Positions 1,762 through 35,328 of a DNA stretch of 35,664 nt are shown piece by piece; position 1 is the first letter of the stretch, and each line of letters opens with the position of its first letter. A program made the position numbers and the translations under genes. This DNA comes from Adineta ricciae. Taxonomy: Eukaryota. The notes beneath the pieces were generated by a model, which ran no database searches, was not told where the DNA came from, and saw only the letters and a program-made list of their open reading frames with translations. The DNA is taken from NCBI GenBank assembly GCA_905250025.1, contig CAJNOJ010000205.1:108628-144291 (forward strand). The letters run 5' to 3'.

Positions 1762-3417
1762 ATGCCAAGTCCAACGATGTTTGATCGGTTTCCGACCGAA
1801 CTAGTCTTTGAAACGTTCAGGTATTTAACAACTTACGATATTCTGCGCGCATTCAAGGGCCTCAATCGACGTATTAACATGGTGTTAACAAATTACCACA
1901 AATACAATTTGAATTTTCAATCATGGCCAAAAGACAAATTCGATTTTGTTTGCGAATCCATTTCTCCTGACCAAATTCAATCTTTGGTGTTATCCGATGA
2001 AGACGATACAGTTCGACAAATTCATCTCTTCTTTCGATCGTTCTACATTCGACGATGTGTAAATCTCAAATCATTAACACTGATTGCAATCGATGAGCAA
2101 GATTGGAAGAAAATTCAAAGAAAACTTCATTTCTTATCAAATTTAACTTCCCTTTCATTTCGATTGTCACATCATCTATCACCGATCAGCGTCGAATTGC
2201 CACTGAAATCTTTAGTTTTGAGTATATGTACAACGAATGAATTGCATCAATGGCTTCTGCACACACCGATGTTAATCAATTTAGAAGTTGAATTGATTGC
2301 TAATGTATCCGACAATGATTTTCGTTTAAATCCAATTAGCACGAATATTCGCCGATTGAAAATCAAACTTCCTGAAAAGTCTAACATAACATTTGAGGAT
2401 CTCGAAGCACTTTTTCTCTGTATGCCGAAAGTGAAGTTCGTGACATTTACTGTCGTCAAAGGATTTCGTTTATTTCACGGTGATCGTTGGGAAGATCTAC
2501 TCCGAAGATATTTACCTCAGTTAGAAGATTTTCGTTTCAAAAGTCATCCCAGTTTGGGCAATGTCACTCCTACACAAGTAATATCTGCATTTCAAACACC
2601 TTTCTGGTTACACGAACATCAATGGATTGTTCATTGTGATTTTCATGGTATACTCAATCAACATCATCGTAACGTGATAAATATTCACCTCTATACATTA
2701 CCTTACCCTGATGATCAGTTTCATTTAACTACGTCAACAAAGTCATTAACTAAGCATTCAAAAGATGCATTTCAATCGGTCAAAGATCTATATCTATCAA
2801 TGGATTCCGACATGTCTACACATCTGCTCGAACATTTTTATTTTCCTGACCTTGACTCATTGACCATCCGTAACTTACATCAATTTCCATCGTTGATTGA
2901 TTTGATTAACCTATCTCATATTAAGCATCTAACCATCGAACAAAACAATCCTATCCAGCCTCAAGAATTCTTCTCGCATATTCTAGTATATTCCATTAAT
3001 CTTCGATCGTTGAAAATCTCTTGGCATTCGCTGATGGAAATCACTCGGGAGTTCACCGATCAAAATATATGCTCGATATTGAAGAAACAGATTAAACATT
3101 TACATGTATTCGACTCTGCAACGAAAATCGTTCCAGACAAGGGTAAACAAGTCGAATGTCTGATCAAATTATTTTCGAAAAATCTTGAAAAACTCAACGT
3201 ACATGTTCCATCGCTGGATACTATTGCCTTACTATTAAATAAAATGTTGAAATTAAACAGTATGGCTGCAGAATATGAGTCAAACTCCAACAAGATGGAT
3301 AGTGATCTTTTATTGCCATGGTTAACAGAAAATGTTCCGAAATTGAAAAACTTTACTCATCAAATACGATACACGTCGAAATCTCGAGTTCAATTACTTT
3401 TTTGGTTGAGTCACTGA
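1762..3417 (+). CDS. F-box domain protein with leucine-rich-repeat-like C-terminal region (551 aa, intronless)
   Basis: 1656-nt ORF. N-terminal F-box-like motif MFDRFPTELVFETFRYLTTYDILRAFKGLNRRIN. Repeated L-rich segments follow (LKSLTLIAIDEQD, LTSLSF, LKSLVL, LRSLKISW…). The antisense ORFs 2247-2459 and 3060-3293 are spurious. Confidence 0.8.
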   Translation: MPSPTMFDRFPTELVFETFRYLTTYDILRAFKGLNRRINMVLTNYHKYNLNFQSWPKDKFDFVCESISPDQIQSLVLSDEDDTVRQIHLFFRSFYIRRCVNLKSLTLIAIDEQDWKKIQRKLHFLSNLTSLSFRLSHHLSPISVELPLKSLVLSICTTNELHQWLLHTPMLINLEVELIANVSDNDFRLNPISTNIRRLKIKLPEKSNITFEDLEALFLCMPKVKFVTFTVVKGFRLFHGDRWEDLLRRYLPQLEDFRFKSHPSLGNVTPTQVISAFQTPFWLHEHQWIVHCDFHGILNQHHRNVINIHLYTLPYPDDQFHLTTSTKSLTKHSKDAFQSVKDLYLSMDSDMSTHLLEHFYFPDLDSLTIRNLHQFPSLIDLINLSHIKHLTIEQNNPIQPQEFFSHILVYSINLRSLKISWHSLMEITREFTDQNICSILKKQIKHLHVFDSATKIVPDKGKQVECLIKLFSKNLEKLNVHVPSLDTIALLLNKMLKLNSMAAEYESNSNKMDSDLLLPWLTENVPKLKNFTHQIRYTSKSRVQLLFWLSH

Positions 3418-9516: not shown

Positions 9517-11559
9517 TCATTTAGGCAGAAGGTTTTGTAAATACCATTGATATCCATCCTCATAATTTTGGTTATAAAAATGTAATAAACAATCAAGAAA
9601 ATCGTCGACGAACATACTATTAGATGATTGATTGCAGCTGACCACAGGTAATTTGCCTAAGTATGTGCAAGACCAATTGCTTGTGTATCGAACGAACGAA
9701 CACATCAGAGGTATACAGCCGGACCCTGGCCAACTACACGGCATGCGACCAACAATATGGTTGGGTTGCAACATATTCTTAGTTTGTTTCACTTGGTTTA
9801 CTGTGATTGGAATCACTTTTCTAGATATAATTTTGATGCAGTTCGTGATCGCAGTGCTGCGCGTATTGAAATTTTGTTTGCCGAGAAACTGATAAACAGC
9901 ATTGCCTAATGCGTATTGCTCGATACAGAAAGCTGAACCGGGAAATGATGGATTCGGATCTTGATAAACTGAGAAAGGCTGCGGTTCAATCCATTTAATC
10001 CATGCTTGTTTCCACAGGGAGAAGAACGAAGAGATGACCGTTGATTTGAATCCCATAAAACAAGCTTGTGGTATCATTGCTAACGGATGCTGTTCACACC
10101 ATTTCTTTATGAAATCGGTATCGTACATAACATGGTCAAGAATAAAGTAGAACATTTGTGAAGATGAATGAAAATCATGTAAACTAGATGTCATATTATT
10201 GTAAATGGCCGTATCGGAATCCATCCAGTAGATTTCTTCGAATCCATCATAAGAAAATTTGATAATATCAAGTTTATACTGTGTTAAATTCCAGTCTTTT
10301 AGAATTGGCGAACTTGAAATTGGTTTACATAAAATCCGGTAATGGTATTGTCGACTAATGTTATTCAAAACTAAGGATTTCGTATCTTCATTCATTACTA
10401 ACAGTCCAACCATAATATTTGGTGTCGATGCTAAGAAAGAATTTATTGAATTGATTGTCATTGTTGTATATCGTTCAGTGCCATCGGCAAAAAAGCAGAC
10501 AATCGCTGATGGGACTTTATAAAGTTTCGAACAGTTTTCAAAAGCAGATGTGTATAAGCCAGAAATCATATATTTCGATAATTCATCATTAAGATTTCCT
10601 TTGGGATTTTGTGTCAGGGATTTAACTAGCCAACGTTGTAAAGCCGCATGCAACATTGCTTGATTTGATATAACAAGATCAGTGTGATCGAGAATATCTG
10701 TTAGAACCTCGAGAGGAAGTTTTAGAAAGTCAGCCTGGTGGCAAATATAGAGAAAGTATTTCGCCGCAGTCTCAATGCATTGCTTGCGTATGGTTGCCCA
10801 GTTATGGGAGAGATACTTCTCTAAGAATAATAAACGTAAGCAATTATGTGCATCGATGTGACTCGCAAGAGAATTCAGCAAAACCTTGTGTAAGGATAGA
10901 ATTTGGTACATGTCGGCAATTTCTAATAGCGATTCTAATTGGTCAAAGGTGAGTTTTTCGACTTCCATCACACCGGTGTAAAGATACTTTAACATATCTG
11001 AGAATACTTGAACATCGTTGACTTGTAATGATATAGTTTTGCTGGTAGATTCCGTCATGCCACTCTGAAACATGGCTGCGAAATAATCGGAACCAGCTGC
11101 TAGAATCGCTCGATGTGCTTTGTAACGATTCACATCATTGACAATCAATTCCACATCGAACATCAGATGATCAGTGTAGAGAATCATACCAACGTCATGG
11201 TAACGGGTTCGTTCATTTTGTGTAATTGTCTCTTGTGCATCGTATCGGTCGAGAATCAGTTGCATGAAATCTTCTCTATCAAGAATATTGCTATCTTTAT
11301 TTTTTCTTTCATTTGGATTCAAACGCCAATGTTCGTTATTGATTTTATATTTATATTCGTAGGAATCGGGTACGAGTTGTATGACTTGACTGAAAACAAA
11401 TTCTTCGGCGTTTCTCTGATAAGCATATGTCAGTATCGCAATAGGTTCTGTCCAACTCGTCTTTGAAAATGAACCGTACAGTTCGATACGATCGGATCTC
11501 GACTTTGCACAAAATTGAAATGTAACAGGATACTTTCGTTGTCTCCAACACTGAGCCAT
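9517..11559 (-). CDS. Intronless 680-aa fusion protein: N-terminal CBM48/AMPK-beta-type glycogen-binding module + BTB/POZ + BACK + C-terminal nucleotide-diphospho-sugar glycosyltransferase-like (GT8/glycogenin-like) domain
   Basis: 2043-nt ORF. CBM48-like motif VTFQFCAKSRSDRIELYGSFSKTSW…YEYKYKINNEHWRLNPNE (compare AMPK beta GBD TFRW…VYLSGSFNNW…HQYKFFVDGQW.HDP). BTB motif FDVELIVNDVNRYKAHRAILAAGSDYFAAMFQSGMTE…ISLQVNDVQVFSDMLKYLYTG. BACK-like DAHNCLRLLFLEKYLSHNW…MLHAALQRWL. C-terminal ~330 aa carry a DxD-like IYWMDSDTAIY and a later FCIEQYALGN, reminiscent of the DQ..LN motif of GT8 enzymes. The antisense ORFs 9632-9892 and 11113-11466 are spurious. Confidence 0.75.
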   Translation of the reverse strand: MAQCWRQRKYPVTFQFCAKSRSDRIELYGSFSKTSWTEPIAILTYAYQRNAEEFVFSQVIQLVPDSYEYKYKINNEHWRLNPNERKNKDSNILDREDFMQLILDRYDAQETITQNERTRYHDVGMILYTDHLMFDVELIVNDVNRYKAHRAILAAGSDYFAAMFQSGMTESTSKTISLQVNDVQVFSDMLKYLYTGVMEVEKLTFDQLESLLEIADMYQILSLHKVLLNSLASHIDAHNCLRLLFLEKYLSHNWATIRKQCIETAAKYFLYICHQADFLKLPLEVLTDILDHTDLVISNQAMLHAALQRWLVKSLTQNPKGNLNDELSKYMISGLYTSAFENCSKLYKVPSAIVCFFADGTERYTTMTINSINSFLASTPNIMVGLLVMNEDTKSLVLNNISRQYHYRILCKPISSSPILKDWNLTQYKLDIIKFSYDGFEEIYWMDSDTAIYNNMTSSLHDFHSSSQMFYFILDHVMYDTDFIKKWCEQHPLAMIPQACFMGFKSTVISSFFSLWKQAWIKWIEPQPFSVYQDPNPSFPGSAFCIEQYALGNAVYQFLGKQNFNTRSTAITNCIKIISRKVIPITVNQVKQTKNMLQPNHIVGRMPCSWPGSGCIPLMCSFVRYTSNWSCTYLGKLPVVSCNQSSNSMFVDDFLDCLLHFYNQNYEDGYQWYLQNLLPK

Positions 11560-11745
11560 AGTTTGAATCGAATGAAATGCTTTTTATTATCGAAAAGTAT
11601 GTATTTACTTTAGTCATTTTCTTACTTTTTCTGTCTGTCGAAAGTAACAACGGTAAATATCAGTAGCACATGTAGGAAGAACAAAAAACGAAAACAGTTG
11701 TGTAAGTAACAATTTCTTTAGCTATAGATGCACGTTTGACAAAAC

Positions 11746-12845
11746 CTATTCAGGTACGATTACACATCGATAGTAAACAGATCCGTCGGATGGTATTGTT
11801 TTTGGATCTTCATAGACATAGTTTGATTCCATTGCCATAAATACATGTATCTCATCGTAGCTCGATTGGAGGAAGGCATCAGCATCACCTCCAGTTGGGA
11901 CATGTTTATACGAAGAATACCTTAATAGAGCATAGAAGTTGCCTACTAACAGGCCGCTGACCGTGACTGTTCCGTTCATCTCTCGCGGTTCAGGGAAAAA
12001 GTATGGTACTTGTTCATCACATGCCGAAACAGACAGATGAACGGGTAATGTTACTCCATCCTTATCAACGATCCCCGTAATAGCGATACCATAATCGATC
12101 TATAATATCATGTAGACTGGAGTACATTGCATAGTGAGAAAATTCTTACATTCAATGGTAAACATCCGTCGTCAGCATCTTCTTTATCATCAATGCTTGC
12201 TCGTGTTGCTGCAAACTCTTTTTCGTTTAAACCCTTTTCGATTTGTTGAAGTTCGTATAAATCATAGTAGATGAGTTTATCATGATCCGGATCATGCTCA
12301 TCTTCATTTTCATATTTTATGCCAACTGCAGGAACGATATGATCATAGTCGTCACAATCGTCGTCAGGAAGAAAGATGCCAAATACGACCGGATGTCCTC
12401 GTAGAATTGATCGTTTCATCCACTGGCAAAATTGACGGAATTGCGGTTGAGGAGTGTCCTTCCAATTCCATTCGTCATATGTCAAATGAAGTTGTGTCAA
12501 AGTTTGCAATGGATCTCGACGATCTTCGGACGATACTGGTTGCAGAAGATATTCACCTTTGTTAATTTTACGGATCAGACCTTGAGAAATCCAAGCACCG
12601 AATTTGAGAGCTAGTGATATATGATAGTGCAATGAAAGAAAGAGTAACCTTCACTTGCGATATTTACCGATCGATTGAATGGATACTTCGCCACAGAAGC
12701 CATTTCCATGTTTCCATTGTAAGCGTGGTGGAATACTGAGTAAAACAGTTGTTGCAGACATGTGTGTTTTTGTTCTTACCGTAGTTCGATGTCGATCTGC
12801 TCGAATATGCGGCATTATATACAGGTAGAATTTTACAGATGTCAA
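11746..12845 (-). CDS. Three-exon gene, hypothetical protein (~330 aa) with conserved Cys…His…Asp-type residues (possible papain/transglutaminase-like hydrolase fold; unassigned): join(12668..12845, 12150..12610, 11746..12099) on the minus strand
   Basis: Exon 1 (start at 12845, 12815 or 12761) ends …GNGFCGEVSIQSI G|gtaaat. The 57-nt intron is 12611-12667 with acceptor cactag. Exon 2 reads (A)LKFGAWISQGLIRK…HPVVFGIFLPDDDCDDYDHIVPAVGIKYE…DADDGCLPLN|gtaaga. The 50-nt intron is 12100-12149 with acceptor tattatag. Exon 3 reads IDYGIAITGIVDKDGVTLPVHLSVSACDEQVPYFFPEPREMNGTVTVSG…RCVIVPE*. Phases are consistent (1, 0). Confidence 0.55.
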
Positions 12846-13331: not shown

Positions 13332-14633
13332 CTATTGTGCTTCATTCCGGCTATTTGGATTCACTCGTCTCGTTTTCCATTTTCGAATGCAATATGCCAC
13401 CAACTCGACTGTCAAAGGTACAGTCAATTTTAGCACTGTTGCTAAACCACCAACTAATCCAATTAATGTTGTTATTATGTAAATAGGAGCATTTTGCGTC
13501 TCATAACTATAAACACATTCTACTGGCTGACATTGCTCATAATAAATTTCATACATTGTGTTGATATTCCATTGTTCGATCATCAAGTTTTTCAGAAGAT
13601 CGTTTACTGTTGAATTTATGCGATAGTTGCTTGATAATGAAATATTCAAAAATGTTATGTTCGATGGACGTTTGTCCGACATGTACAATTGAATTGTGTC
13701 GATACAATTCTGATCATAAAGGCACTCTAGTGTTGATTTGAGTAGTGCTTCAACTGTATAGCACCCGACATCGAAACCAGGTATTAAAAGCGACGGCAAA
13801 TCGGTAGAATTATCCCAAATGTAAGTCGATTCAGTACATTGAGCCGAGTGAGCGCAACTACAGTTGTTATAGGTACGCTGCGCCGTACTAACTGAAGATC
13901 CGCTTGGTCCGGTAAAAAAGTCATGACTTGACAAAGTTCCTGATGTAAGAGAGTTGCTTTGAGTCGTTTCGCGTATCATCGAAATAGACGACAGAAAATC
14001 ATTGATTGTGAAGAGTTTAAACTCAGTAATCAATGCTTGAATTTGTAATTCAAGCACCTTATACGATGTGACAGATGATCTAATATATTGACTTGAATAG
14101 AATTGATTTAGAGCATTCGAAATCGTCTGATTGCTCAACGTGCAGAAGTCACTAAGTGCACGAAATCTGTATATGAAGTTCATTCGGAAGTCATTTGGAT
14201 TGATGGACGTCGGATCAGCTTTAGGTATAGTATTAATCCATTCTTCAGATACGAAAATACTTGTACAGATTTGATGAAATGTGTAATTAACATCAAGAAT
14301 CGCTTTGTAGCTAATTGAGATTTGTTTACATGGACAGGATAGCGTTTGAGAATATGAAGAATTGAGACGAGCATACTCTTCATAGGAAGGTACTGGCACG
14401 TGGACTCTCTTCGTGATTTTCACAACGGATGTGTAGAGAAGAAGAATGGCCAATGATAGAATGAAGAGAACAAGAAATATTCGAGTGGAAATTATTTGAT
14501 TGCAAAGCTTGTACTGATCAGTTGAAGGTGGAATCGACGGAAACAGATTGAAGTTTTGTAACGAGTATTTTAACTTTTCATACAATATATTGACTCGTTC
14601 ACGAGTAGTTAACACTGCAAACGTAGAAAACAA
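13332..14633 (-). CDS. Two-TM glycoprotein, family member A (433 aa, intronless): cytoplasmic N-tail, signal-anchor TM, ~330-aa Cys- and N-glycosylation-site-rich ectodomain, C-terminal TM and basic tail
   Basis: 1302-nt ORF. TM1 is IFLVLFILSLAILLLYTSVV. The ectodomain has many NxS/T sites and about 12 Cys. TM2 is IYIITTLIGLVGGLATVLKLTVPLTVELVAYCI followed by RKWKTRR. ~50% identical to the downstream paralog. No family recognised. Confidence 0.7.
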   Translation of the reverse strand: MFSTFAVLTTRERVNILYEKLKYSLQNFNLFPSIPPSTDQYKLCNQIISTRIFLVLFILSLAILLLYTSVVKITKRVHVPVPSYEEYARLNSSYSQTLSCPCKQISISYKAILDVNYTFHQICTSIFVSEEWINTIPKADPTSINPNDFRMNFIYRFRALSDFCTLSNQTISNALNQFYSSQYIRSSVTSYKVLELQIQALITEFKLFTINDFLSSISMIRETTQSNSLTSGTLSSHDFFTGPSGSSVSTAQRTYNNCSCAHSAQCTESTYIWDNSTDLPSLLIPGFDVGCYTVEALLKSTLECLYDQNCIDTIQLYMSDKRPSNITFLNISLSSNYRINSTVNDLLKNLMIEQWNINTMYEIYYEQCQPVECVYSYETQNAPIYIITTLIGLVGGLATVLKLTVPLTVELVAYCIRKWKTRRVNPNSRNEAQ

Positions 14634-14695: not shown

Positions 14696-15980
14696 TCACT
14701 CACCGTTGAATGTGTTTTGTTGTCGCTTTTTTCGTCTTATCAGCTTCACTACGAATGGTACCAAGATCCTCAGACCTGTTGATAGACCGCCAATTAACCC
14801 AATCAACGTTGTAATGATGTAAAGCAAATCATTCCTCGTCTCATAAATATAAGTGCATTCAGCAGGGTGACATTGCTTGTAATAATCTTCATGGTTGACG
14901 GACGAATTCCACTGTTCGATCATTAAATTTTGAAGAATGTCATTGAAGGTAGTGTTGATTAAGTAGTTACTGGGAAGTGATGAATTCAGAGCTGTTACTG
15001 CGATTGGTGGAGAATATGTCACATACGATATAACTGTGTCGATACAATTTTGATCGTAGAAGCACTGAAGTGTTGATTGAAGTAATGATTCGATTACATA
15101 GCATCCAATGTAGAAATTCGGTACTTTAAATAGAGGCATAGAGACTGGATAAGTGTAAATAGAAGATTGTCGGACACAGGTACTTGAAGTGGGACAAATG
15201 CAATCATCATCAAATCGGGCCAAATGTATTGCCAAAGAACTTGTAAATCGATCGATACGTATTGTGTAACCGACGAGAAAGTTCGAAAGCAAAGCATTGC
15301 CTTGAGTTGTTTCTCGAACCATAGTGAGCGATGACGAAAAGTCATTAATTATTGACAATTGAAATTGATCGATTAACGCTTGAACTTGAGATTGGAACAC
15401 ATCATAGAGTATGACAGAAGCAGTAACAAATTGATTCGAATAGAATCGATTCAGACTATCCGATATTGTCTGATCAATCAAGTTACAGAAGCTTTTGATG
15501 GCTTGTAATGCAGAAGGGAGTGTGTTTCGAAAATCATCCACAAAAAGATCGATTCTTCCGACTACTACTGTAGGACTCAAATTCAAACCATTCATCCGAC
15601 AGGAAAAAACTTGTACAAACTTGATGTAATGTATAATTGACATGAAGGATGTCTCTGTAATCAATCGAGATATTTTGACATGGACAGGATAATGTTTGAG
15701 AATATGAAGAATTGAGACGAGCATACTCTTCATAGGAAGGTGCTGGCACGCGGACTGTCTTCGTGATTTTCACAACGGATGTGTAGAGAAGAAGAATGGC
15801 CAAAGATAGAATGAAGAGAACAAGAAATATTCGAGTGGAAATGATTTCATTTCGAAATTGATGTGCATCTGTAATGGATTCCATGGACGGGAACAGATTG
15901 AGATGCTGTAGATATGTTTTGCATTTGTCCCATAATCGATGCATCTTGTGGGAAATGGTGTCTGACACTGGAATAGCCAT
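14696..15980 (-). pseudogene. Tandem paralog B of the two-TM glycoprotein gene, split into two overlapping frames (15534-15980 and 14696-15733) by an apparent 1-nt frameshift near 15583; a recent pseudogene or a sequence error
   Basis: The N-terminal frame MAIPVSDT…ISTRIFLVLFILSLAILLLYTSVVKITKTVRVPAPSYEEYARLNSSYSQTLSCPC…SDEWFE matches paralog A and then runs into a stop. The second frame resumes homology at LSPTVVVGRIDLFVDDFRNTL… and continues through the C-terminal TM IITTLIGLIGGLSTGLRILVPFVV and RRKKRQQ. Confidence 0.6.
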
Positions 15981-16434: not shown

Positions 16435-17721
16435 TCAAGAAGAACTAATTAAATCTTCGACTGTGCACCAATATTCATCCCATCCAATTCCTTCTTGAAC
16501 CCAATCCGCACTCTCAACTGGGAACAATGCATCCATTACCATTTGTGCAATTTTCAAATAAGGCAGTGTATCATGTGCAGTGTCGAATTTCTCTGCATAC
16601 ATCAGTGCTCTGATTGTCTTCAGCACATGTTCATCGGGATGTGTTAAGCATTTCTCGATCAGAGGCAGCCATGGATTTATTGCATCGGAATACAGATGCT
16701 CGTTTGATACTTGATATTCATTGCATAAATAATCAACATTGAGCTTTGGTCGGCCACGTGCAACGTAGTATAAAAGGTCAGTTGCGAACTTTGCTTTCAT
16801 CAATTTCAACTGATTTTGTTTGCTTTGAAGTGAATGAACGATAATATCCAAGAAGAGACCACTTGTAGTTGCATGCATGAGAAAAAAATCCAGACGAGGT
16901 GGTTTGTTTGGTCGTATAGCAGCTACATTTGCTAGAATACTCGTTCGTCTAGCGTCATTCAAGTCTGGTTTCCACATTCGTGCATATTCTGCAATTAACG
17001 GACCACCACCTCTTTGTAGAAGTACGGGCGTTTTCGGTCGAGCATCGGTGTAAACGATCATATCATCAAATCGATGATCATTTCTGATCAGTTCAATAAT
17101 TTCCAAAGCTGTTTTATCACCATCTCCACTAAAATTCGAATCTAAACGATCGACAACATCTTTAACATTGATTCGATCAACCGCTGCCATAGCTAGACCT
17201 TCAATGGCCATTCCTTTCGATTGAAACTCAAGAGCATATCCAAGATGAATGAATGGATGATAAGCGCCAGCCAAAATAAGACCAAGATATCCTTTGTTAA
17301 ATGTATAATCTTCGATTAGAGCTTCCATCTTTCCTTGATACTTTTCACTGATTAATTCATTTTTAAAGAATTCCAAATAATCATGATAATACTTATCGTC
17401 ACCTAAGCATTTTTCGGGATCGAAGTTATCTCTTTGATCAAGTGCAGCTAAAGGCTGTTGAATTTTTGTATGTTGTTCAAAGATGTGTTTCAACGTTTGA
17501 GAAGAAGCACCGAATCCTAAAGCAGCTAGAAGATGATGCGCAGTATGATTGTGAAAACCGCCTGGAATATTGAAAAACAGATGATGAACTTCGTGATTCT
17601 TTTCGAGGAGATCAGAACATGTTCGAACTGCTTCAGGTTGAATACCAGGTAATAGACAGACATCATTTTTTCTGAGAAATTCATTGCATGACAAAGCAAA
17701 CATGATGCAGTAAGTTAGCAC
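16435..17721 (-). CDS. DUF4243 / questin-oxidase-like (fungal-bacterial type oxidoreductase family) protein, 428 aa, intronless
   Basis: 1287-nt ORF. N-terminal region HHLFFNIPGGFHNHTAHHLLAALGFGAS and later AYHPFIHLGYALEF resemble the conserved His-rich motifs of the questin oxidase/AflY-like DUF4243 family. The family assignment is from memory only. CT-rich tract just upstream on the + strand (17788-17810). Confidence 0.55.
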   Translation of the reverse strand: MLTYCIMFALSCNEFLRKNDVCLLPGIQPEAVRTCSDLLEKNHEVHHLFFNIPGGFHNHTAHHLLAALGFGASSQTLKHIFEQHTKIQQPLAALDQRDNFDPEKCLGDDKYYHDYLEFFKNELISEKYQGKMEALIEDYTFNKGYLGLILAGAYHPFIHLGYALEFQSKGMAIEGLAMAAVDRINVKDVVDRLDSNFSGDGDKTALEIIELIRNDHRFDDMIVYTDARPKTPVLLQRGGGPLIAEYARMWKPDLNDARRTSILANVAAIRPNKPPRLDFFLMHATTSGLFLDIIVHSLQSKQNQLKLMKAKFATDLLYYVARGRPKLNVDYLCNEYQVSNEHLYSDAINPWLPLIEKCLTHPDEHVLKTIRALMYAEKFDTAHDTLPYLKIAQMVMDALFPVESADWVQEGIGWDEYWCTVEDLISSS

Positions 17722-20078: not shown

Positions 20079-23000
20079 TTGACTAGAATGTCTTCAGCGT
20101 CCGCATCCACGTTGTCTGGTAAAACCATTCTATTAGAACTTGGGTATGAAAAAGGCTTTAAAGCGAAACAAGAACTGATCAATTTCTTGCGAGAGCAACA
20201 CGCACGTGTTTCGTATATTCTTACAGCTAGTGTACGTATGTTTACTTTTGTACTTCAATCTGTAAAAATCTTTTTTTCCATCAAGACTGATTATGTTTTC
20301 ACGACGAATAATGTCGATAATTCGAAGACGCGTCGTGCCAAACAACTCGGTATTCCACTAATCGACGTCGAATATGTGCGTCAATATCGTTCCTCGTCTT
20401 CTGGACAAATATCGATTGATATCAATAAGTTTCTCATCAAATCGTCCGAAGATCAAGAGAATTTTACGAGAACTGGCACTATAACCGTCTTAGGTATTGT
20501 CGGATTCCTTGTATAACGACAAGCCTTCCTAAAATTGTTATAGAATCTCGACCGAATATGTGTAAAATCAATAAATTCGATGCCAGTAAAATCAAATTAT
20601 GGAATTCCGACGATGAAAAGCTGCCTTGCTTCGACGAACTGACGCATGGTGCTATTGGAAAATGGGCGATCTTTAAAGTATCCTCACATTGACCTGCTCA
20701 TCACTCTTCTTTTTTGATATTCTAGGAAACCACTGATAATTCCCACGTTTTCTTCGCTCTTGAACTTCAAATAATTCCCGAACAATACTACAATCCATCG
20801 ACAAGTGATTATCGCTTGCGATTTCGGTATGAAAAGCAAACTATTACAGAAGGAAAACAGCAAGACAAGAACATTTCGATTCAATATGCCTTTGGAAATG
20901 ATCCTAATGAGCAGCAACAATTATTTGCATTCTATTACAATCGAATATCCACGATGCCACGTATTACACGTATTCGCGACATGTTACCTAATCAATTAGG
21001 TTCAAAATTATTATTACGAGTGAGTTCCTTGCATGTACGGAAGAAAAGCTATGATTGAATTCGTTTTCAGTCGTTGTTCATGCATCGTCTTGATACACAA
21101 ATACTTGATGAGAATGTATGTCAATTGATTGAATCGATTTGGTTGGAGTCAGTTGGTGATGTGAATAAAATCTTGAGTGTCTCACCTGAATTCATCACTC
21201 TCAAAACGGTATGCACGTCTAAAAATGACTGATTTAGTCTCAAATCTACCGTGTTTAGATAGTTGAAGCCGAAGCCGCACTTCTTGAATTGAAATCTACC
21301 AATGATTCGGCAGCAGCAACACGCTTTTATTCGCTTTTACCACATCAACCGTCGTGTCAGATTGACCTCGTGAAAAATCGGCGCGCATTGATGGAAAAAC
21401 TAGATTTATGTCAAGTATGACAAATAGATATCTTTATCTTTTTTGTTGATCGTTTTAACTACCAACAGATGCTGAGGGACATGCTAACAGTGAATGAACT
21501 GACAAACTGGAACATGAAAGCGCCAATTGAAGCAAAATACAGAGCGTTAAAGTGCTACATAGAAGTTCTGTCGAGCTCGACACCTGAGTATAAGAATATT
21601 GCAAAGTTGATTCAATCATCATCCGATAGGTTAATCAATTTTCACCATTCGTTTTGAGAATACTGAATATACAACATTTTTATTCGTTACAGCAGTGAAC
21701 AAGTTCATATTCATAATATATTCAGCGTAGCAAAACAGAGTGATAGTTTGAATTTTCGTTCTACACTATCTTACCAACGGCAGTTATTTCATGGATCTAA
21801 ATATTCGAATTTCCTCGGAATTCTCTCTCGGTAAAACAGTTCATTTCTCATCGAAATTTGTCTATGTTGTCAAATTAGTGGTCTGGTTTTGCCGAAAATG
21901 GTGGCGGAAGACTTCGGTGTTGTGCGTACTGATATTGGTTGTCTTGGTTATGGAATTTATTTCTCAGATTCAATTTCTACATCTCTCAAATATACAACAG
22001 CAAGCACCGCACGACCCGGACGTCGACTGTTATGCATATGCCAAGTGGCATTAGGCGAATCGGCAAATTACTACTCATTTGCACCAAATCTTACAAAGCC
22101 TCCCGATGGCTTCCAGAGTACACATGGAGTCAAACGAACAGAAGATAATCACTCGATGTTTACTGTAAGTTTTAATTTAAGATGAATGCTCTGTTCATAA
22201 TTGGTTCTAGGATAATGAGTACGCAATCTATCAACTTGATCAACAGCTTTTACACTATGTCGTTGAAGTCTCTTGGGCACCAAAGGATGCTTTAAACATC
22301 CAATTGGAACGTTTACCAATCGTTCATCATCAACAATGTGCACTTGACGGTGTTTCAGTTGATGTTCCAACAACGATCGATGATGAAATTATCGAAATGG
22401 CGGAGCAAGATTATGGTTTGATATGTCCGTCATCAGGCAAAATCATTCCGCTACGATCATTTCATCTGCGTGCTCAAGTTGTTGACACAACAGTTGAAGT
22501 AATTCGATTCATTTTTCGATTTGAATGTCTAATTTTATCTTTAACATGCAATAGGTTGTCCTGTATCAAGTCTATTACAACACGAGTTCGATGCCCATCG
22601 AAGCTAAGTACGTTTTTCCATTAGATGAAAATTCCACGGTGTGTGGTTTCGAAGCCCATATTAATGACAAAGTGATTAAAGGTGTTGTCAAAGAAAAAGA
22701 ACAAGCGAAACAAGAATATCGCGAAGCTATTGCCAAAGGTCATGGTGCTTATCTAATGCATCAAGAAGAAGCTCAGGTTTTCAGTGTAGCTGTTGGTAAT
22801 TTACCTGCAAATACCGAAGTCATCATAAAGATAACCTACGTTGCCGAGCTAGAAATCGAAAATGGTGATATTATGTTCCGTCTGCCGGCGAAAATGACTT
22901 CTTGGCAATCAAAGCAAGCCATAGAAGCACGAGATCAATCGATTCTTCGATCGATCGGCATGGTCGACGAGAAAGTGGAATTCACTCTCAGAGCATCCAT

Positions 23001-26000
23001 TCGAATGCCATATAATATCACAAAACTATTTTCGCCAACACATCGTCTTCGTCGAAAAATAACCAATTGCATTGCCATGGTCGAACTCGTTGATAATGTT
23101 CTACTTGACCGAGATTTTATCCTCTCAATCACACTCAATAGTCCGAATTTACCTCGAATATCGACTGAAACCTTGGAAAATTCCAGTTCTCAGGCATGCA
23201 TGTTAACGTTTTACCCAAAATTTGAAACACCAGCTAATTCTCGTGAAGAAATCGAGATTATATTTATTGTTGATGTGTCCAATTCAATGGATGGTACTCA
23301 TGTACACCAAGCGAAACAATTGGCTCATTTATTCCTCACTAACTTATCAATTAATGATGTGAAGACGTATTTTAACATCATTACTTTTGGATCAGGTATG
23401 ATATATTACACAATTTATTGATTGCTATAATAGAATTCGATTTAGATAATGATGAATGCTTTCCTATATCTGTACCAATAACGAGAGAAAATCTTGACAA
23501 AGCTAAACATTTTGTTCTGGTTTGTTACTTTTCTTGAAATAAGTGTCTTCCTCTACTGAATTCATTCTAGCATTCACTGATTCATCGTGGTAATACAGAT
23601 CTATTCTCTGTTCTTCACCGTTACTCACTATTGCCATCCAAATTTTCACGTCAATTTATTCTACTATCTGATGGACACATTCATGACCTCCAGTCGATTC
23701 TCACTCTACTCAAACACCAATCAACATTCCGTCGTGATCGTTTGTTTACCTGTTCAATTGGTAATGTTGCAAATAAGCATTGTCTGAAGCAGCTGGCTAA
23801 CGAAGCAAGTGGAGGTGGTCTAACGATCATATTCGACTCGAATTACCGATCGAAATGGAAAGCTAAAGTGTTAAATCTTCTCGAACATGTTCGACAGCCA
23901 TGTGTGACTAGTATATCGATCGATTGGAATGGTCATATCGATGAACAGGAAAGGTTTCATATGCAAGCACCAAAAACAATTCGTTCTCTATTCAACGGAA
24001 TGCAACTTACTGTTTATCGATTTGTACAGAATTGTCATAAGGCAACGCTGACGGCAATGGTCGACGGACAAGAATTTGTTACCACTGTATTTAGCAATCC
24101 GATGACAATGACAACAGGACGTATTCTACACTGTTTAACTGCGCGAGCGATCATCGATGATTATGCTAATGGGCTATTAGATGCTGATGAAAGTGAAAAT
24201 GAACTAATCAAAGTTCAATATAAGCAAGATCTTATCGATCTGAGCATCAAACATTCAGTTGTTAGTGCGTACACAAGTTTTGTTGCTATCGAAGAGCGTG
24301 ATACGAAATCGAATGTCAAAAATCGTCAATTAGGTAAGCGAAACGAACTAGTACACATTGATATTGAAGTTTTCATTACTGGCCATAGGAGTTCGTCTGC
24401 TTGATATCATGCTGGAAAATGACACGGATCTACTTCCATACATGGGATGGGATGGTGATGTGTCAAATGTGTTAATAATGAAACAAAAACTCATCGATGC
24501 ATGTACTTTACTCGATAGTACACCGATTCAAAGGAAAAAAGAGGTGATTGTTGATATTGAAAAACTTTGTGAAAGTATTTCCTATCGAGCAAGTGGAGAT
24601 GCAAAGTGTGAGATCATGATGAATATCATACGGACGTGTCGGTATTCGTTAAATGAATATGATAAAGCGGATGAAATCGAACAGAAAATGCGGCAAGGTA
24701 GATGATTTGCAGGAACGAATTATGCATTCCTTCGTTTATTTCGAAAAATATTCAGATATACTGATGGAGATGGTAGGTGCAACAGCAGAAGAACGACAGG
24801 TGTTAAAACAACAGTGTCAAGCGAAAAACTTGATATTTACGGATGATGAAATGTATGTAAAATAGCTATGAGTATATCAGAATAAGATTTCTTGCTTTTG
24901 TAGAGATTTGTTGTCTTCCTACGATGGTAAGAAGGCGATTATTCACTCAGACGTAATGATATTTCTTTGTCATAGAAATCAGTGATTCATTTGGAGCGGA
25001 TTTCAAGAACTTAACACCAATTGATCGAACGAAGAAAATGAGAGAATTAACAACTATGGTATGAACATTGAATACTATTTGAGCTATGACGTTTCTTTGT
25101 AGTTAGGTGAAAAGACAGATTTCGATAACGGATGCTTCTTACCAACTACCTCAACTGAAGGAAAGATCATGCCATCCTCGGTAGTTGAGGAACAGGTTTT
25201 ACCGGCAGTAGAACAAGATCCATGGGAAAACATATTACAAGAGCTAGCAACGACAGATGATTGGAGTACGGCTGATTTCGGCTTTCTGGATTGCCTGGAC
25301 GAAACATCCTATGTCGAAATTAGTGAGTACCTATGAAGACCTAATAGTGATTTTCTACGCGTATTCATCCGCATGTTATTGTGGATAACGACATATACGC
25401 TTTTGTTTGTAGCCAGTCGTCTAGATCAAGTACGATCGAGAAGAATGCGTATGTTTCAAGATGCCGAAATCGAAGAGAAAGACGGAGATGTTGACGTATC
25501 CTCATTAATTAATCTGCCTCTTGGTGGAGAAGATCGTCCAGCGGATTTAAATTTACGCTCAGAATCGGACGTTGGATATGTGCCGACACCTAATAATGAA
25601 AAATCTATAGAGGAAAACGACGAGATGGAAAGTAGGTCTGGATATTGTTCAAACTCCTTTTTATTGTGCCTATTATAGTGGAAACAGCTCGTGCATCATC
25701 GATATCGTTGCTTGCGAAATCTGAACACGATACTACAACAACACGTGCAGCGACGTCTACACCTACTACAATTGAATCAGACAGCTTGTATCGAAGGATA
25801 TCATTAGTGGATGAGACTCGATTGAATGCGTCTCAACGTCGTAGTGGCTGCATGTCATCTTCGGCTCCATCAGAACCGAAGATTAGTAAGTTAAGATGAC
25901 TCGTTTTCGTTTTGATTATTCATTTTCATTAATGCATCACGAATACAGAAACACGTGCATCGAGTCCACCTCTTCCTGAAAGGCATGAAGGTCCATCATG

Positions 26001-28859: not shown

Positions 28860-29873
28860 ATGTCAGTTGCTTCTACTTCTAGTCTAACAGTCATATTCAA
28901 CAGTGTTAATTGGTCGTTTAACTATGTTATACTGCCGATTTGTTTCATATTAGGAAATGCCGGTAATTGTCTGAACTTGTTGATCTTTGCACGATCGTCA
29001 TCGCGATCAAACTCGTGTTTCCTTTATTTTCTATCTGCATCAGTTATCAACGTAATTATACTGAATTTCGGTCTTGTACTTCGTTTATTGCGTGGCTTGT
29101 GGAATATTGATCCTGCGCTAACCTTATTATGGTTTTGCCGTTTACGTACCTATTTGGTAGGAGCAAGTTTTTTAATCTATCGATTATCGATTCTGTTTGC
29201 TTGTGTTGACCGAATGTGTGCGAGTTCCCGCAGTGCATGGATACGAATGGAAAGTCGTCCGAAAGTTGCTTATCGTTTGATCATATTAATATGGATCATT
29301 TGTGCCATCTATTTATCACCATCTCTAATATATCAGACGATAGTCTATGGTCAATGTTTAGCGCCACCGAACACTATATATGCAACTTACTCAACTATAT
29401 CCACGTTGATTCAAGGATTGTTCATTCCTTCGAGTATGATTCTGTGTGGTATCATTACTTTTCTTCACTTGAAAATGATGCAAAAACGAGTGGAACCACT
29501 ACATAATCTCACAGGACAAAATGAACGTCACATCCTCGGTCAATACCTTGCGATGTTAGTTGTCCAAGTTATTACCGATTTCTTATGTAATATATTGTAC
29601 CCGGCTTATTTAATCTATAATCTTATCTCCCCAGCACCAACCCCAACGACTTTATTCATTTTGAATCTGGCATTCACAACACCTTATTTAAACTTCAGCG
29701 CCGCATTTTATTTGTATACACTATCAAGTCCAAAATTCCGTCGTAAACTAGTTCGTGCTTTGAAACAAATCAAATGGATTCGTCAAAATTCACCGGATGA
29801 TCGAAGTCATGGACACACCGCAACTGCAGTTTCATTGCGTCATCAACCAGTTATAACTGCTTTGTACGCATAG
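28860..29873 (+). CDS. Rhodopsin-like (class A) 7TM receptor, 337 aa, intronless
   Basis: Seven hydrophobic segments. GNAGNCLNLLIF in TM1. DRY-equivalent ACVDRMCAS after TM3. NPxxY-like FSAAFYLY in TM7. The frame-shifted internal ORFs 29056-29238 and 29216-29506 are spurious. Confidence 0.75.
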   Translation: MSVASTSSLTVIFNSVNWSFNYVILPICFILGNAGNCLNLLIFARSSSRSNSCFLYFLSASVINVIILNFGLVLRLLRGLWNIDPALTLLWFCRLRTYLVGASFLIYRLSILFACVDRMCASSRSAWIRMESRPKVAYRLIILIWIICAIYLSPSLIYQTIVYGQCLAPPNTIYATYSTISTLIQGLFIPSSMILCGIITFLHLKMMQKRVEPLHNLTGQNERHILGQYLAMLVVQVITDFLCNILYPAYLIYNLISPAPTPTTLFILNLAFTTPYLNFSAAFYLYTLSSPKFRRKLVRALKQIKWIRQNSPDDRSHGHTATAVSLRHQPVITALYA

Positions 29874-31096: not shown

Positions 31097-32137
31097 TTAA
31101 TGAGGATGCATAATGATTGTATTGGCATCATTTGTTGGGACGATTGGAAAACGACGTAAAACACTACTACGACAGAGATTGATGAATTCAAGTCGGAATG
31201 GTCTGGATATTGAAATAAATAAATAGAATGGAACAACACCAGTTAGATAGACAAGCATGAGACTAATAAAACTGTAGAAGGCTTCTATTTCTAACCTCTC
31301 TGTGGTTTTATTCGTCACATAGTATGTCAATGCACCATAGAGAAGATTAATTCCATATGGAACCGATGAGATAATATTAATGACGACTTCGGTAATGACC
31401 ATATAAGCAAGATGACGATCTAATTTTCTGGCAGAGACTTGACTTGCATTATGACGCTGATATAGATCACGAATCGTTAAAAGACTGAAGACTGCCATTA
31501 AGATAGGAGGTGTAAAAGTAAAAAAAATAATTTGATAAATTGCATACGATAACTTGTACATGCCGAACATTCCACAAGTGCCGGCGCTGTTAATATACAT
31601 CAATATGGGCATATGCAGAGGAACTAATGTGCATATAACGCACATAATGCAAACAAGTATTATTGCTGCTTTAATCGAGCTGAGCGAGCGAAGACGCACG
31701 TTTGCTCGTGTAGCAAAAAATCGATCGATGCAAGCAAGAACGACTGCATACCGAAGAAAAAGACTGAATGTATGGCTGCCGTATTGCCGTACTTTACAAT
31801 AGAAGACGGATTGAGTTTGAAGATCCGTGTTATTAAGAGCATAAAGCAACGGAGGAAGCGTCCAAAGCAAAAACATGATTGAAAATATTGATAAGGAAAG
31901 AAGATAAATTGAGCTGGGACTACGTCGATATGCCCGGCGTGTAAATATTAGACAGTTGCAAATACTGCCGACGACACCTAAGACAAGATATAGGCTAACA
32001 CCATACCGAATGATTTCTCGTTGAATAGCTGGTAACCGTGTTACTGCCATCGTTTTCTTTGCTATTTGTGAAGCGCATTTTTCTGAAGATTTATAAGTAG
32101 AATAAAACGTTGGAATTTGTATCCAAGTTATCAGCAC
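31097..32137 (-). CDS. Rhodopsin-like 7TM receptor (second, divergent paralog), 346 aa; the start may be the internal Met at ~32050
   Basis: 1041-nt ORF. GSICNCLIFTRRAYRR in TM1/ICL1. DRY-equivalent ACIDRFFATRANVRLR. Seven hydrophobic segments. NxxxY-like segment near the C-terminus (TGVVPFYLF). Confidence 0.7.
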   Translation of the reverse strand: MLITWIQIPTFYSTYKSSEKCASQIAKKTMAVTRLPAIQREIIRYGVSLYLVLGVVGSICNCLIFTRRAYRRSPSSIYLLSLSIFSIMFLLWTLPPLLYALNNTDLQTQSVFYCKVRQYGSHTFSLFLRYAVVLACIDRFFATRANVRLRSLSSIKAAIILVCIMCVICTLVPLHMPILMYINSAGTCGMFGMYKLSYAIYQIIFFTFTPPILMAVFSLLTIRDLYQRHNASQVSARKLDRHLAYMVITEVVINIISSVPYGINLLYGALTYYVTNKTTERLEIEAFYSFISLMLVYLTGVVPFYLFISISRPFRLEFINLCRSSVLRRFPIVPTNDANTIIMHPH

Positions 32138-32805: not shown

Positions 32806-35328
32806 ATGGCAAGTAATACGACTTCAGCTGCTCAAAGTATGCAGGGTTATTCACTCTCGCAATTTTTCACCACGTTAACCGCTTCTGCAATCATTGCTGG
32901 TATTGAAGTTGTTTTATTTATTATTATCAGAACGATATTTAAACGTATCTATGAACCAAAAACATATCTTGGAGACGAAAAACAACGTGTTAAGCCGTTA
33001 CCTCGTACACCATACGGATGGTTACCTGCTCTATTAAAAATGCCGCCAGAAGATCTCATTCGTACATCTGGCCTTGACGCTTATTTATTTGCACGTTATC
33101 TCTACATTCATGCTTTGTTTTTCTTGAGTTTCTTTCCTCTCCTAGGAGTTATTCTATTCCCGATCTACACAGTTAATGGTAAAGGTGCGACTTTGGGTAA
33201 GACTGGGCTGGATATTCTAACATTCGGAAACATTACACCACGTCATTCGCTACGATATATAGCTCCGTTGATACTAGCATATGTTTTCATCGGTGCATAT
33301 CTTCTTCTTCTGTACGTCGAGATGAAGGTTTTCGTTGGGAAGCGTCAAGCGTTATTACGAAATGCAGCATATCAATCTCGTGCTAGTGCAACAACGATTC
33401 TTGTCACTGCTATACCAAAACCGTATTTACATGTCGATGTTCTCCACCGAATTTTCGATCAATTTCCCGGTGGAGTGAAATATATTTGGCTCAATCGAAA
33501 TCTCGGAGATCTTCCGGATAAGGCAGAACAACGTATGGAGTTAGTCGAAAAGCTCGAAACAATCTTGTCCAAATTGATGAAAACCGTACTGAAAAACAAG
33601 GCGAAATCGAAAACGAACCTGAAGGTTCATGCTACAGTCGAAGAAGAAGGTATGATTAATCATTACATCCCACAAAAGAAACGGCCAACAATGCGAGTTG
33701 GATCCATACCAGTACTTTCATCATTGTGTTGTGGCAAAAAAGTCGATGCTATCACACACTGTAAAGCGACAATTTCGCAACTGAATACGGAAATCGAGAG
33801 TGCACAATCAAATTTAAAAGATTATAAGCCAATCAATTCTGCATTTATTCAGTTTAATTCGCAAATAGCAGCACATATGGCTGTACAGAGTGTTGCGGCG
33901 TCCATCCCGCTCGCCATGACACCGCGATATATCGATATCAGACCATTGAATATAGTCTGGTCGAATCTAAGATTAACCTACTACGAACTGAAAGTCAGAA
34001 AACTCATCATGGTAGCAGCAACAGTAGCGCTCATTGTCTTCTGGACTATTCCCGTCTCTATCGTCGGTATTCTTTCTAACATTACATATCTTACGGATAA
34101 AATCACCTTTCTGAAAGTCATTTATAAACTCCCGACAGCACTTCTCGGTGTCGTCACTGGCCTCCTACCGGCAGCTCTATTGGCTATTTTGATGGCATTG
34201 TTACCTATCGTTTTGAAACTATTAGCATCACTGTCCGGTAAACCTACAACAGATGCTATTGATCGTTATGTTCAAGGTTCTTACTTTGTTTTTCAAGTGA
34301 TACATGCGTTTCTATTTGTGACCATTTCGAGCAGTGTCTCCAGTGTAGCTGTTGATATTATTCAAAACCCGCCACTGGCTGCAACTATTCTCGCTGCGAA
34401 TATTCCAACTGCCAGTAATTTCTTCTTTAGTTTTATTGCACTGCAGGGATTAAGCGTAGCTTGTGGTGTTCTTTTACAAGTTTTCACCTTAATTTCTTTT
34501 TATCTGCTTGGTAAATTATTCGATAATACGCCACGAAAGATCTGGAGACGATATTTCACACTTTCAAGTCTCAGCTGGGGCACGATCTTTCCTGTTTTTA
34601 CAAATTTCGTTGTTATCACTTTAGTTTATTCGATAATCGCGCCCCTAATCCTAATCATATCCGCTTTGGCGTTTGCTTTGTTTTACATTGCTTATGCGTA
34701 TACGATGTTTTATGTGAACGATTTTCCCAACGATTCTGGCGGCCTGGCTTTCCCAAGAGCAATTTACCAGTCATTTACCGGTGTCTATTTAATGGAAATT
34801 ATGCTTGCAGCTCTGTTTTTTCTCGTACAGAATGAGGTCGGCGCACAAGCTGCTGTTCCTCAAGGTGCTCTGATGTGTGTCTTAATCATCATTACATTTG
34901 TTGTCCACATGGCCATGCGATCCAGTTTCGATCCACTGACATATTATCTACCGGTTGACGCTGATGAATACGCACAATTAGAAAATCCAGGCACACGAAT
35001 GTTTCCGATAGCGAGAACGGCCATGCATAGGATCAGTTATTGTCGAACGACGAACATGAACGATGTTGTCGTGGACTTCTTCGATAACACAATGGAAAAT
35101 GCATATATACATCCAGCACTACGAGATCCTACACCAATTGTATGGATTCCCGAAGACAATATAGGTATTGCAATGGATGAGATTCAACGAACTAAAGTAT
35201 CACATCCGAATGTTTTTATGTCAACGAAAGGCGCGACATTTAATGAGAAGACCAAAATTGTGGTCAATTCTCATCCACCTGATTATTTCAAAGCACAAGG
35301 CGAAGATATTATTCAAGCGCGATTTTAA
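32806..35328 (+). CDS. CSC1/OSCA/TMEM63-family (DUF221) calcium-permeable stress-gated cation channel, 840 aa, intronless
   Basis: 2523-nt ORF. N-terminal RSN1_TM-like region RIYEPKTYLGDEKQRVKPLPRTPYGWLPALLKMPPEDLIRTSGLDAYLFARYL (compare fungal CSC1 RVYEPRTY…G.FGW…S..D.I…GLDAY.FLR). Cytosolic PHM7_cyt-like region SRASATTILVTAIPKPYL. 10-11 predicted TM helices with DUF221-like core (ALLPIVLKLLASLSGKPT…FFFSFIALQG). Confidence 0.8.
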   Translation: MASNTTSAAQSMQGYSLSQFFTTLTASAIIAGIEVVLFIIIRTIFKRIYEPKTYLGDEKQRVKPLPRTPYGWLPALLKMPPEDLIRTSGLDAYLFARYLYIHALFFLSFFPLLGVILFPIYTVNGKGATLGKTGLDILTFGNITPRHSLRYIAPLILAYVFIGAYLLLLYVEMKVFVGKRQALLRNAAYQSRASATTILVTAIPKPYLHVDVLHRIFDQFPGGVKYIWLNRNLGDLPDKAEQRMELVEKLETILSKLMKTVLKNKAKSKTNLKVHATVEEEGMINHYIPQKKRPTMRVGSIPVLSSLCCGKKVDAITHCKATISQLNTEIESAQSNLKDYKPINSAFIQFNSQIAAHMAVQSVAASIPLAMTPRYIDIRPLNIVWSNLRLTYYELKVRKLIMVAATVALIVFWTIPVSIVGILSNITYLTDKITFLKVIYKLPTALLGVVTGLLPAALLAILMALLPIVLKLLASLSGKPTTDAIDRYVQGSYFVFQVIHAFLFVTISSSVSSVAVDIIQNPPLAATILAANIPTASNFFFSFIALQGLSVACGVLLQVFTLISFYLLGKLFDNTPRKIWRRYFTLSSLSWGTIFPVFTNFVVITLVYSIIAPLILIISALAFALFYIAYAYTMFYVNDFPNDSGGLAFPRAIYQSFTGVYLMEIMLAALFFLVQNEVGAQAAVPQGALMCVLIIITFVVHMAMRSSFDPLTYYLPVDADEYAQLENPGTRMFPIARTAMHRISYCRTTNMNDVVVDFFDNTMENAYIHPALRDPTPIVWIPEDNIGIAMDEIQRTKVSHPNVFMSTKGATFNEKTKIVVNSHPPDYFKAQGEDIIQARF

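Follow-up and report, generated by a model that had tools for sequence, protein, structure and literature searches.

A single-exon Adineta ricciae gene joining a CBM48-like module, a BTB-BACK adaptor scaffold, and a divergent GT8-like glycosyltransferase domain

We describe a gene of the bdelloid rotifer Adineta ricciae whose 680-amino-acid (aa) product combines a glycogen-binding module, a ubiquitin-ligase adaptor scaffold of the BTB-BACK type, and a divergent glycosyltransferase (GT) domain. The gene lies in a 35,664-nucleotide stretch of contig CAJNOJ010000205.1 (assembly GCA_905250025.1, positions 108,628 to 144,291 of the forward strand), all of which is called the window below. An earlier note, made from the letters alone, had proposed such a three-module fusion in one open reading frame (ORF), with an N-terminal AMPK-beta/CBM48 module, then BTB, BACK, and a C terminus of GT8/glycogenin type, and had called the architecture undescribed. 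The fusion stands: every string quoted in that note is in the translation, which is identical (exact look-up) to A. ricciae CAF1287517.1 (UniProt A0A815CQF5), the same 680-aa single-exon model. We found no paper describing an architecture made of a carbohydrate-binding module (CBM), BTB, BACK, and GT8. The protein is already public, but only under a BTB name (“unnamed protein product” and “BTB domain-containing protein,” with no further annotation), and its architecture is uncharacterized.

Our leading interpretation, held tentatively and at somewhat less than even confidence, is that this is an intact, conserved gene for a glycogen-localized GT8-like glycosyltransferase that doubles as a substrate receptor of a Cul3-based cullin-RING ligase (CRL3) and is not a glycogenin orthologue.

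The gene and its three modules

The ORF is uninterrupted (Table 1). A second A. ricciae copy (P0091, P0090; 94% identical) lies on another contig, and both contigs share one gene order (PLA2, questin-oxidase-like, two unknown genes, a 302-aa gene, and the CBM-BTB-BACK-GT8 gene), so this is a real gene and not an assembly accident. The flanking DNA (~37% GC, with little space between genes, which lie on both strands and in some cases contain short introns) looks like that of a compact animal genome. No signal peptide or transmembrane segment was found in the 680-aa protein (maximum 19-residue hydropathy, 1.32), which is therefore predicted to be cytosolic; a secreted or Golgi GT8 was rejected on the same grounds. 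About 190 bp (11560-11745) separate the start codon from the stop of the upstream same-strand gene, so that either the promoter is very compact or the two genes are cotranscribed.

Table 1. Features of the 680-aa gene and its upstream neighbor (window coordinates)
Feature	Position	Strand	Basis or remark
Single-exon ORF, 680 aa + stop	9517..11559	-	ATG start, TGA stop, uninterrupted
AMPK-beta-type/CBM48-like module, aa 11-100	11260..11529	-	Family profile vs AMPK-beta CBM
BTB/POZ domain, aa 126-231	10867..11184	-	Pfam BTB aa 132-231, E 1.5e-20, 73.9 bits
phi-x-E Cul3-contact motif M168-T-E170	11050..11058	-	Alignment to KLHL3 in 4hxi
3-box + BACK helical domain, aa 232-335	10555..10866	-	Pfam BACK aa 252-317, E 1.2e-6, 29.0 bits
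Divergent GT8-like GT-A glycosyltransferase domain, aa 351-680	9520..10509	-	
DxD motif D447-S-D449, predicted Mn2+/UDP-sugar ligands	10213..10221	-	Aligned with PuGat1 and glycogenin
E547-Q548 (FCIEQYALG), candidate counterpart of GT8 D-Q catalytic pair	9916..9921	-	Invariant in 36-sequence alignment
Variable Cys/Ser-rich insert in GT domain, aa 593-633, predicted disordered	9661..9783	-	pLDDT <50, model residues 278-318
H660 (LLHFYN), candidate third Mn2+ ligand	9580..9582	-	At least 90% conserved; equivalence by topology
Upstream same-strand gene	exons 12108-12632 and 11746-11979	-	Ends ~11746

The central scaffold is the most readily recognized part. Its BTB and BACK matches both exceed the Pfam cut-offs, and an alignment with KLHL3 spans aa 127 to 311, i.e., BTB through BACK. 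The top PDB sequence matches were KBTBD4, KLHL3, KBTBD2, poxvirus A55, SPOP, gigaxonin, and KLHL11, all of them Cul3 substrate adaptors; KLHL3, KBTBD4, and KBTBD2 resemble the protein across BTB and 3-box/BACK at E values of 1e-15 to 1e-17. BTB adaptors contact Cul3 through a phi-x-E motif, which is kept here: AMFQSGMTES aligns with AMFTGDMSES of KLHL3 in PDB entry 4hxi (the KLHL3-Cul3 complex), with M-T-E over M-S-E. The motif is also kept in the protein’s own orthologue group (both A. ricciae copies, A. steineri, and Didymodactylos) and, as W-K-E, in a distant Protostelium protein. As in KLHL and KBTBD proteins, a C-terminal domain occupies the position of the substrate receptor, but here it has a GT-A fold instead of Kelch repeats (no Pfam match to which was found anywhere in the 680-aa protein), and a carbohydrate-binding module is added at the N terminus.

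That N-terminal module required family profiles. Searched with phmmer against the PDB, the N-terminal 124 aa gave chance matches only, so the CBM is undetectable from a single sequence; a search of 5.8 billion proteins with the N-terminal 125 aa alone returned the second A. ricciae copy as the one homologue; word-seeded searching thus fails on a module this divergent. A three-sequence profile and the N terminus of the same-architecture protein P0033 gave PDB matches of a fitting theme, nonsignificant, and were superseded by a seven-sequence profile. Its top matches were the AMPK beta1 and beta2 CBMs (E 0.005 to 0.013), and 21 of the 24 PDB matches listed were starch or glycogen binders (AMPK beta, pullulanase CBM48, LSF1, SEX4/DSP4, and glucoamylase CBM20). 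Aligned with the AMPK-beta1 CBM by hhalign, this profile reached a probability of 94.2% (E 1.1e-7), which bears out the earlier assignment, although the single sequence stays below the Pfam threshold. In two same-architecture proteins, the homologous modules pass the threshold of the Pfam family AMPK1_CBM (PF16561) on their own (P0033, E 5.1e-9, 36.6 bits; P0098, E 1.6e-9, 38.3 bits).

Residues W36, K70, and W78 of the module align with the carbohydrate-contacting residues W100, K126, and W133 of AMPK-beta1. Among eight aligned sequences, W36 and K70 never vary, and W78 is kept in seven; equivalents of AMPK-beta1 L146 and N150 could not be aligned reliably. One A. vaga paralogue, of a second group described below, has Cys in place of the Trp equivalent to W78. 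An AlphaFold2 (AF2) model of the module (four-sequence alignment) was all-beta and unreliable, with a predicted local distance difference test (pLDDT) score of 45.8, and was discarded. The module thus resembles AMPK beta, SEX4, LSF1, and pullulanase CBM48 at profile level and in its W/K/W sugar-contact positions, but it is very divergent, and its partner is a BTB adaptor, not a kinase scaffold, phosphatase, or glycoside hydrolase. To judge from these alignments, it is a divergent CBM48/AMPK-beta-type domain that probably still binds sugar.

For the C-terminal domain, about 90 to 115 homologues were found in the 5.8-billion-protein set, and HMMER, run exhaustively over 1.84 billion representatives, retrieved only 161 proteins at E ≤ 1e-3. 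An AF2 model (36-sequence alignment) was confident (pLDDT, 82.9; predicted template modeling score, 0.82). The earlier note had suggested a fold comparison, and in a Foldseek search of the PDB this model matched retaining GT-A glycosyltransferases only (families GT6, GT8, and GT24); the modeled fold is Rossmann-like GT-A, nearest to GT8 structures. The weakest full-length matches of the family profile are bona fide GT8 proteins, namely, P0193 (family-profile E 2.1e-13; Pfam GT8 E 4.5e-140) and P0234, itself above the GT8 threshold; several family members match Pfam GT8 weakly around the DxD motif, and a few pass (P0037, 25.6 bits; P0128, 26.4 bits). Given the HMMER count and these links, the domain is a divergent, sharply delimited subfamily of GT8.

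The DSD that the earlier note took for a DxD-like motif aligns exactly with D117-A-D119 of PuGat1 and with D102/D104 of glycogenin, and PuGat1 is also the best PDB sequence match of the family profile, over the K...DxD region (marginal, E 0.12). In Gat1, D117, D119, and His231 are Mn2+ ligands (bioRxiv 10.1101/764241). D447 and D449 are invariant in an 8-sequence alignment, and D447, S448, and D449 each reach at least 90% conservation across the 36 sequences of the family alignment; about 20 invariant, mainly polar or aromatic positions are common to more than 90 members, standalone proteins included. This is the pattern of an active site and not of a decayed one, and the domain is likely an active enzyme dependent on Mn2+ and a uridine diphosphate (UDP)-sugar. 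Also invariant or nearly so in the family are K429 (YKLD), E547-Q548, D534 (YQDPNP), and H660. The AF2 model places E547-Q548 at a helix N terminus and H660 where the last core strand ends, ahead of the C-terminal helix. On this model, E547-Q548 or alternatively D534 is a plausible counterpart of the GT8 catalytic pair, H660 of glycogenin H212/PuGat1 H231, and K429 of a GT8 active-site residue. The insert at aa 593 to 633 is not conserved in family alignments.

Among known GT8-type enzymes, LgtC, WbbM, GlyE, and the xylosyltransferase domain of LARGE1 are only 8 to 12% identical and serve lipopolysaccharide synthesis or the secretory pathway, without BTB or CBM partners. A parallel is offered by Gat1, a cytoplasmic GT8 alpha-galactosyltransferase that modifies and stably binds Skp1 (PDB 6mw5/6mw8; bioRxiv 10.1101/764241) and is thus, like the domain here, a cytosolic GT8 associated with a cullin-ligase adaptor. 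Gat1 differs in being a single-domain protein that acts in trans on the Skp1 of SCF ligases, whereas here a GT8-like domain is fused to a Cul3-type BTB and a CBM, and it has no detectable sequence similarity to the 680-aa protein outside the DxD region. The protein as a whole is outside the glycogenin and BTB-BACK-Kelch classes and peripheral to GT8 and CBM48 by Pfam criteria.

Family, fusions, and distribution

Named sources of the family are the bdelloids A. ricciae, A. vaga, A. steineri, Didymodactylos carnosus, and Rotaria spp., the amoebozoans Protostelium nocturnum and Stenamoeba stenopodia, and the metamonad Blattamonas nauphoetae. Other members come from metagenome or transcriptome contigs, of which the long ones have a gene content that looks eukaryotic. 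No animal other than bdelloid rotifers is among the family members, and two signature peptides found no relatives in 185,579 prokaryotic species genomes and IMG/VR, a search that very divergent relatives could escape. Horizontal transfer from bacteria was rejected as the origin, there being no prokaryotic relatives in those genomes.

The full fusion, whose distribution the earlier note had asked about, recurs in bdelloids and beyond. Orthologues and paralogues are present in A. steineri, A. vaga, Didymodactylos, and Rotaria, with intact homologues of 50 to 60% identity in other bdelloid genera. The CBM-BTB-BACK-GT8 order is found again in Protostelium P0033 (30% identical; one Trinity transcript, single ORF) and in P0098 (892 aa; 2.8-kb transcript-like contig), which favors transcription of the fusion as a single unit.

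Other partners of the GT8-like domain include a C-terminal BTB (P0101, P0102), RING (P0067), a probable F-box (P0036, E 6e-3), EF-hand with C2 and caspase (Peptidase_C14) domains (P0143, 1,252 aa, in the order EF-hand, GT8-like, C2, caspase), two C2 domains (P0145), pentapeptide repeats, and SHOCT. The domain is highly promiscuous in protists, and its partners are cytosolic signaling modules, several of them of E3-ligase type. Two standalone members, P0035 (L002, 8001-9182) and P0038 (L003, 8001-9149), show conserved synteny, with a full-size ABC transporter gene upstream and an ASCH-domain gene downstream; the contigs are from different environmental samples, which points to one eukaryotic lineage with compact, apparently intron-poor genes.

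Proposed function and competing interpretations

If the protein is a glycogen-localized transferase doubling as a CRL3 receptor, we infer the following course. The CBM would tether the protein to glycogen (alpha-glucan), and BTB would make it a homodimer. The GT8-like domain would bind Mn2+ and a UDP-sugar and act as a retaining transferase, passing the sugar to an acceptor on the glycogen particle that could be a glucan end or a glycogen-associated protein. BTB and the 3-box would recruit Cul3-Rbx1, and ubiquitin would go either to the enzyme itself or to whatever protein its GT domain holds. Glycogen-directed ubiquitin ligase systems exist in laforin-malin and HOIL-1, where, as proposed here, a carbohydrate-binding module brings a ubiquitin ligase to glycogen particles; their parts are unrelated (CBM20-phosphatase plus RING-NHL; RBR ligase), and they have no glycosyltransferase domain.

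Several results weigh against this dual role. Of the four domains that the earlier note expected in Pfam, BTB and BACK were found; AMPK1_CBM matched aa 11 to 90 at 20.0 bits (E 7.8e-4), under its 26.8-bit gathering threshold, and a scan of residues ~340 to 680 gave no match, with none to Glyco_transf_8 (PF01501; gathering threshold, 24.3 bits) at E ≤ 1. Sequence alignment with classical GT8 proteins is reliable only up to the DxD motif (hhalign versus glycogenin; MAFFT with GT8 intermediates), so the catalytic D/E-Q pair and the third Mn ligand are assigned by topology only, and no counterpart of the GT8 “KPW” lysine was seen in the C-terminal domain. The phi-x-E motif is lost (N-M/L/I-K/N) in a second bdelloid paralogue group (A. 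vaga P0092; P0094; P0095; Rotaria P0005) and also lost in P0002 and P0065, and the family as a whole is thus not constrained to couple to Cul3; roughly 80% of its members are a standalone GT8-like domain without an E3-type module. The ratio of nonsynonymous to synonymous substitution rates against the second A. ricciae copy (0.35; first 166 codons only) comes from 5 synonymous and 7 nonsynonymous differences, too few for any conclusion. A rough neighbor-joining tree places the bdelloid sequences together in a single clade within those of protists, but its backbone branches are short and it carries no bootstrap values. As far as sequence can tell, the second bdelloid CBM-BTB-BACK-GT8 group suggests that in one paralogue the links to Cul3 and to glycans have been subfunctionalized or are decaying.

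The motif losses and the standalone majority would suit a protein that is an enzyme only, i.e., a glycogen-targeted cytosolic GT8-type transferase in which BTB-BACK is a mere dimerization or oligomerization scaffold without Cul3 coupling. BTB is a dimerization domain, which also fits, as does the dimeric state in which glycogenin and Gat1 work (bioRxiv 10.1101/764241). We nonetheless think this unlikely, if respectable, because phi-x-E is kept in the protein’s own orthologue group and in the distant Protostelium protein, the BACK/3-box is retained, the nearest solved relatives are all Cul3 adaptors, and the GT8-like domain has been fused independently to RING and to a probable F-box. Quite unlikely, in our estimate, is the converse, a glycogen-localized CRL3 receptor whose GT8-like domain is noncatalytic, either a pseudoenzyme or a UDP-sugar/glycan sensor replacing Kelch. 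The domain does sit exactly where KLHL and KBTBD proteins carry their substrate-binding Kelch propeller, the missing Pfam GT8 match and the lack of an evident KPW-type lysine agree with loss of catalysis, and a 2026 Gat1 preprint describes nonenzymatic control of an E3 subunit by a GT8 enzyme (PMC13278062); against it stands the essentially invariant DxD with some 20 further invariant positions, standalone members included. These two alternatives differ solely in which inferred activity, catalysis or Cul3 coupling, is real.

The earlier note had offered a glycogen-targeted self-glucosylating enzyme or a glycogen-targeted Cul3 adaptor, and its interpretation is supported overall; phi-x-E and BTB-BACK favor the adaptor part, and the self-glucosylating glycogenin is disfavored. 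A true glycogenin, that is, a self-glucosylating glycogen primer carrying extra domains, would share with GYG1 and GYG2 the GT8 GT-A fold, the DxD motif, a cytosolic location, and a presumed link to glycogen, and yet we consider it very unlikely and rejected orthology, since five other GT8 structures fit the C-terminal domain better. Against human GYG1 (sequence verified against 7q0b), the family profile aligned by hhalign in the DxD region only (E 0.021; probability, 2%). The protein ends 20 residues past H660, inside the GT C-terminal helix, and therefore has no linker and no C-terminal glycogen-synthase-binding region of glycogenin type; no conserved acceptor Tyr was identified, the only candidate loop (aa 593 to 633) being variable and predicted disordered. 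Glycogenin is thus not a close relative, and glycogen association here would come via a separate CBM. That the ORF is an artefact (a chance ORF, assembly chimera, or decaying pseudogene) is barely credible, since the 680-aa product is encoded twice in A. ricciae, each time in the same gene order, intact homologues exist in other bdelloid genera, and amoebozoan transcripts encode the same architecture.

A bolder version of the dual role, which we regard as improbable, posits that cullin-RING ligases have a receptor of a new class, one whose substrate-recognition domain is an active cytosolic GT; placed on glycogen by its CBM, the protein would glycosylate a target, or read UDP-sugar levels, and present the target to Cul3. 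On that view, the repeated joining of GT8-like domains to RING, a probable F-box, and BTB (on either side) would be the mark of a general glycosylation-ubiquitination module that originated in amoebozoan-type protists and was captured by bdelloids via eukaryote-to-eukaryote horizontal transfer.

As for origin in the leading interpretation, bdelloids probably received the entire fusion from an amoebozoan-like protist. Uptake of foreign genes by bdelloids is well documented (PMC4632278, PMC3499245). Together with the nested position of the bdelloid clade and the single-exon structure, this suggests such a transfer without proving it.

Neighboring genes and biological significance

Four genes upstream of the 680-aa gene, on the same strand, lies a single-exon questin-oxidase-like ORF (16435-17721, minus strand; 428 aa) with a full-length Questin_oxidase-like domain (E 6.4e-73). 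The Questin_oxidase family is typical of fungi and bacteria, and this gene may be of foreign origin, as is common in bdelloids. Two adjacent paralogous ORFs on the minus strand (13332-14633 and 14696-15733; 433 and 345 aa) are Cys-rich with a C-terminal hydrophobic anchor, have no Pfam match, share the motifs LMIEQWN, EC.Y.YET, and IITTLIGL.GGL, and occur as a pair on the second A. ricciae contig as well; they have the appearance of a tandem duplication within an uncharacterized membrane-anchored family.

Elsewhere in the window, an 840-aa single-exon ORF (32806-35328, plus strand) encodes an OSCA/CSC1-type channel (RSN1_TM, PHM7_cyt, RSN1_7TM) with a PHM7_ext tail domain. Two divergent rhodopsin-family G-protein-coupled receptor ORFs (28860-29873, plus strand; 31097-32137, minus strand) face each other, one of them below the Pfam threshold (24.6 versus 30.5 bits), and a gene for a VIT and VWA protein (22591-24404, plus strand) is apparently split by a short intron at ~23421 to 23631. 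A 551-aa ORF without Pfam match (1762-3417, plus strand) has an F-box-like N terminus, FDRFPTELVFETFRYL, followed by leucine-rich-repeat-like periodicity, and from its sequence may be another E3 adaptor in the window.

Cytosolic glycosyltransferases acting with ubiquitin ligases are very rare, the paradigm being the Skp1 glycosylation pathway of protists. Its terminal enzyme, Gat1, is a GT8 protein and a proposed glycogenin ancestor (bioRxiv 10.1101/764241; PMC13278062). The family defined here is a separate, sharply bounded GT8-like subfamily, unannotated and currently missed by Pfam, that is covalently joined to E3 modules (BTB-BACK, RING, and probably F-box) and, in the A. ricciae protein, to a glycogen-binding module as well; it is also a candidate case, in bdelloids, of gene transfer from protists to animals. 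Given an active enzyme and Cul3 binding by its BTB, the protein would couple glycosylation, glycogen, and ubiquitination in one compact, natural example and, with three separable domains and clear point mutants, would offer a tractable handle on how energy stores may be read by the proteolytic machinery. Should it represent a new receptor class, sugar-nucleotide or glycogen status would be coupled directly to protein turnover.

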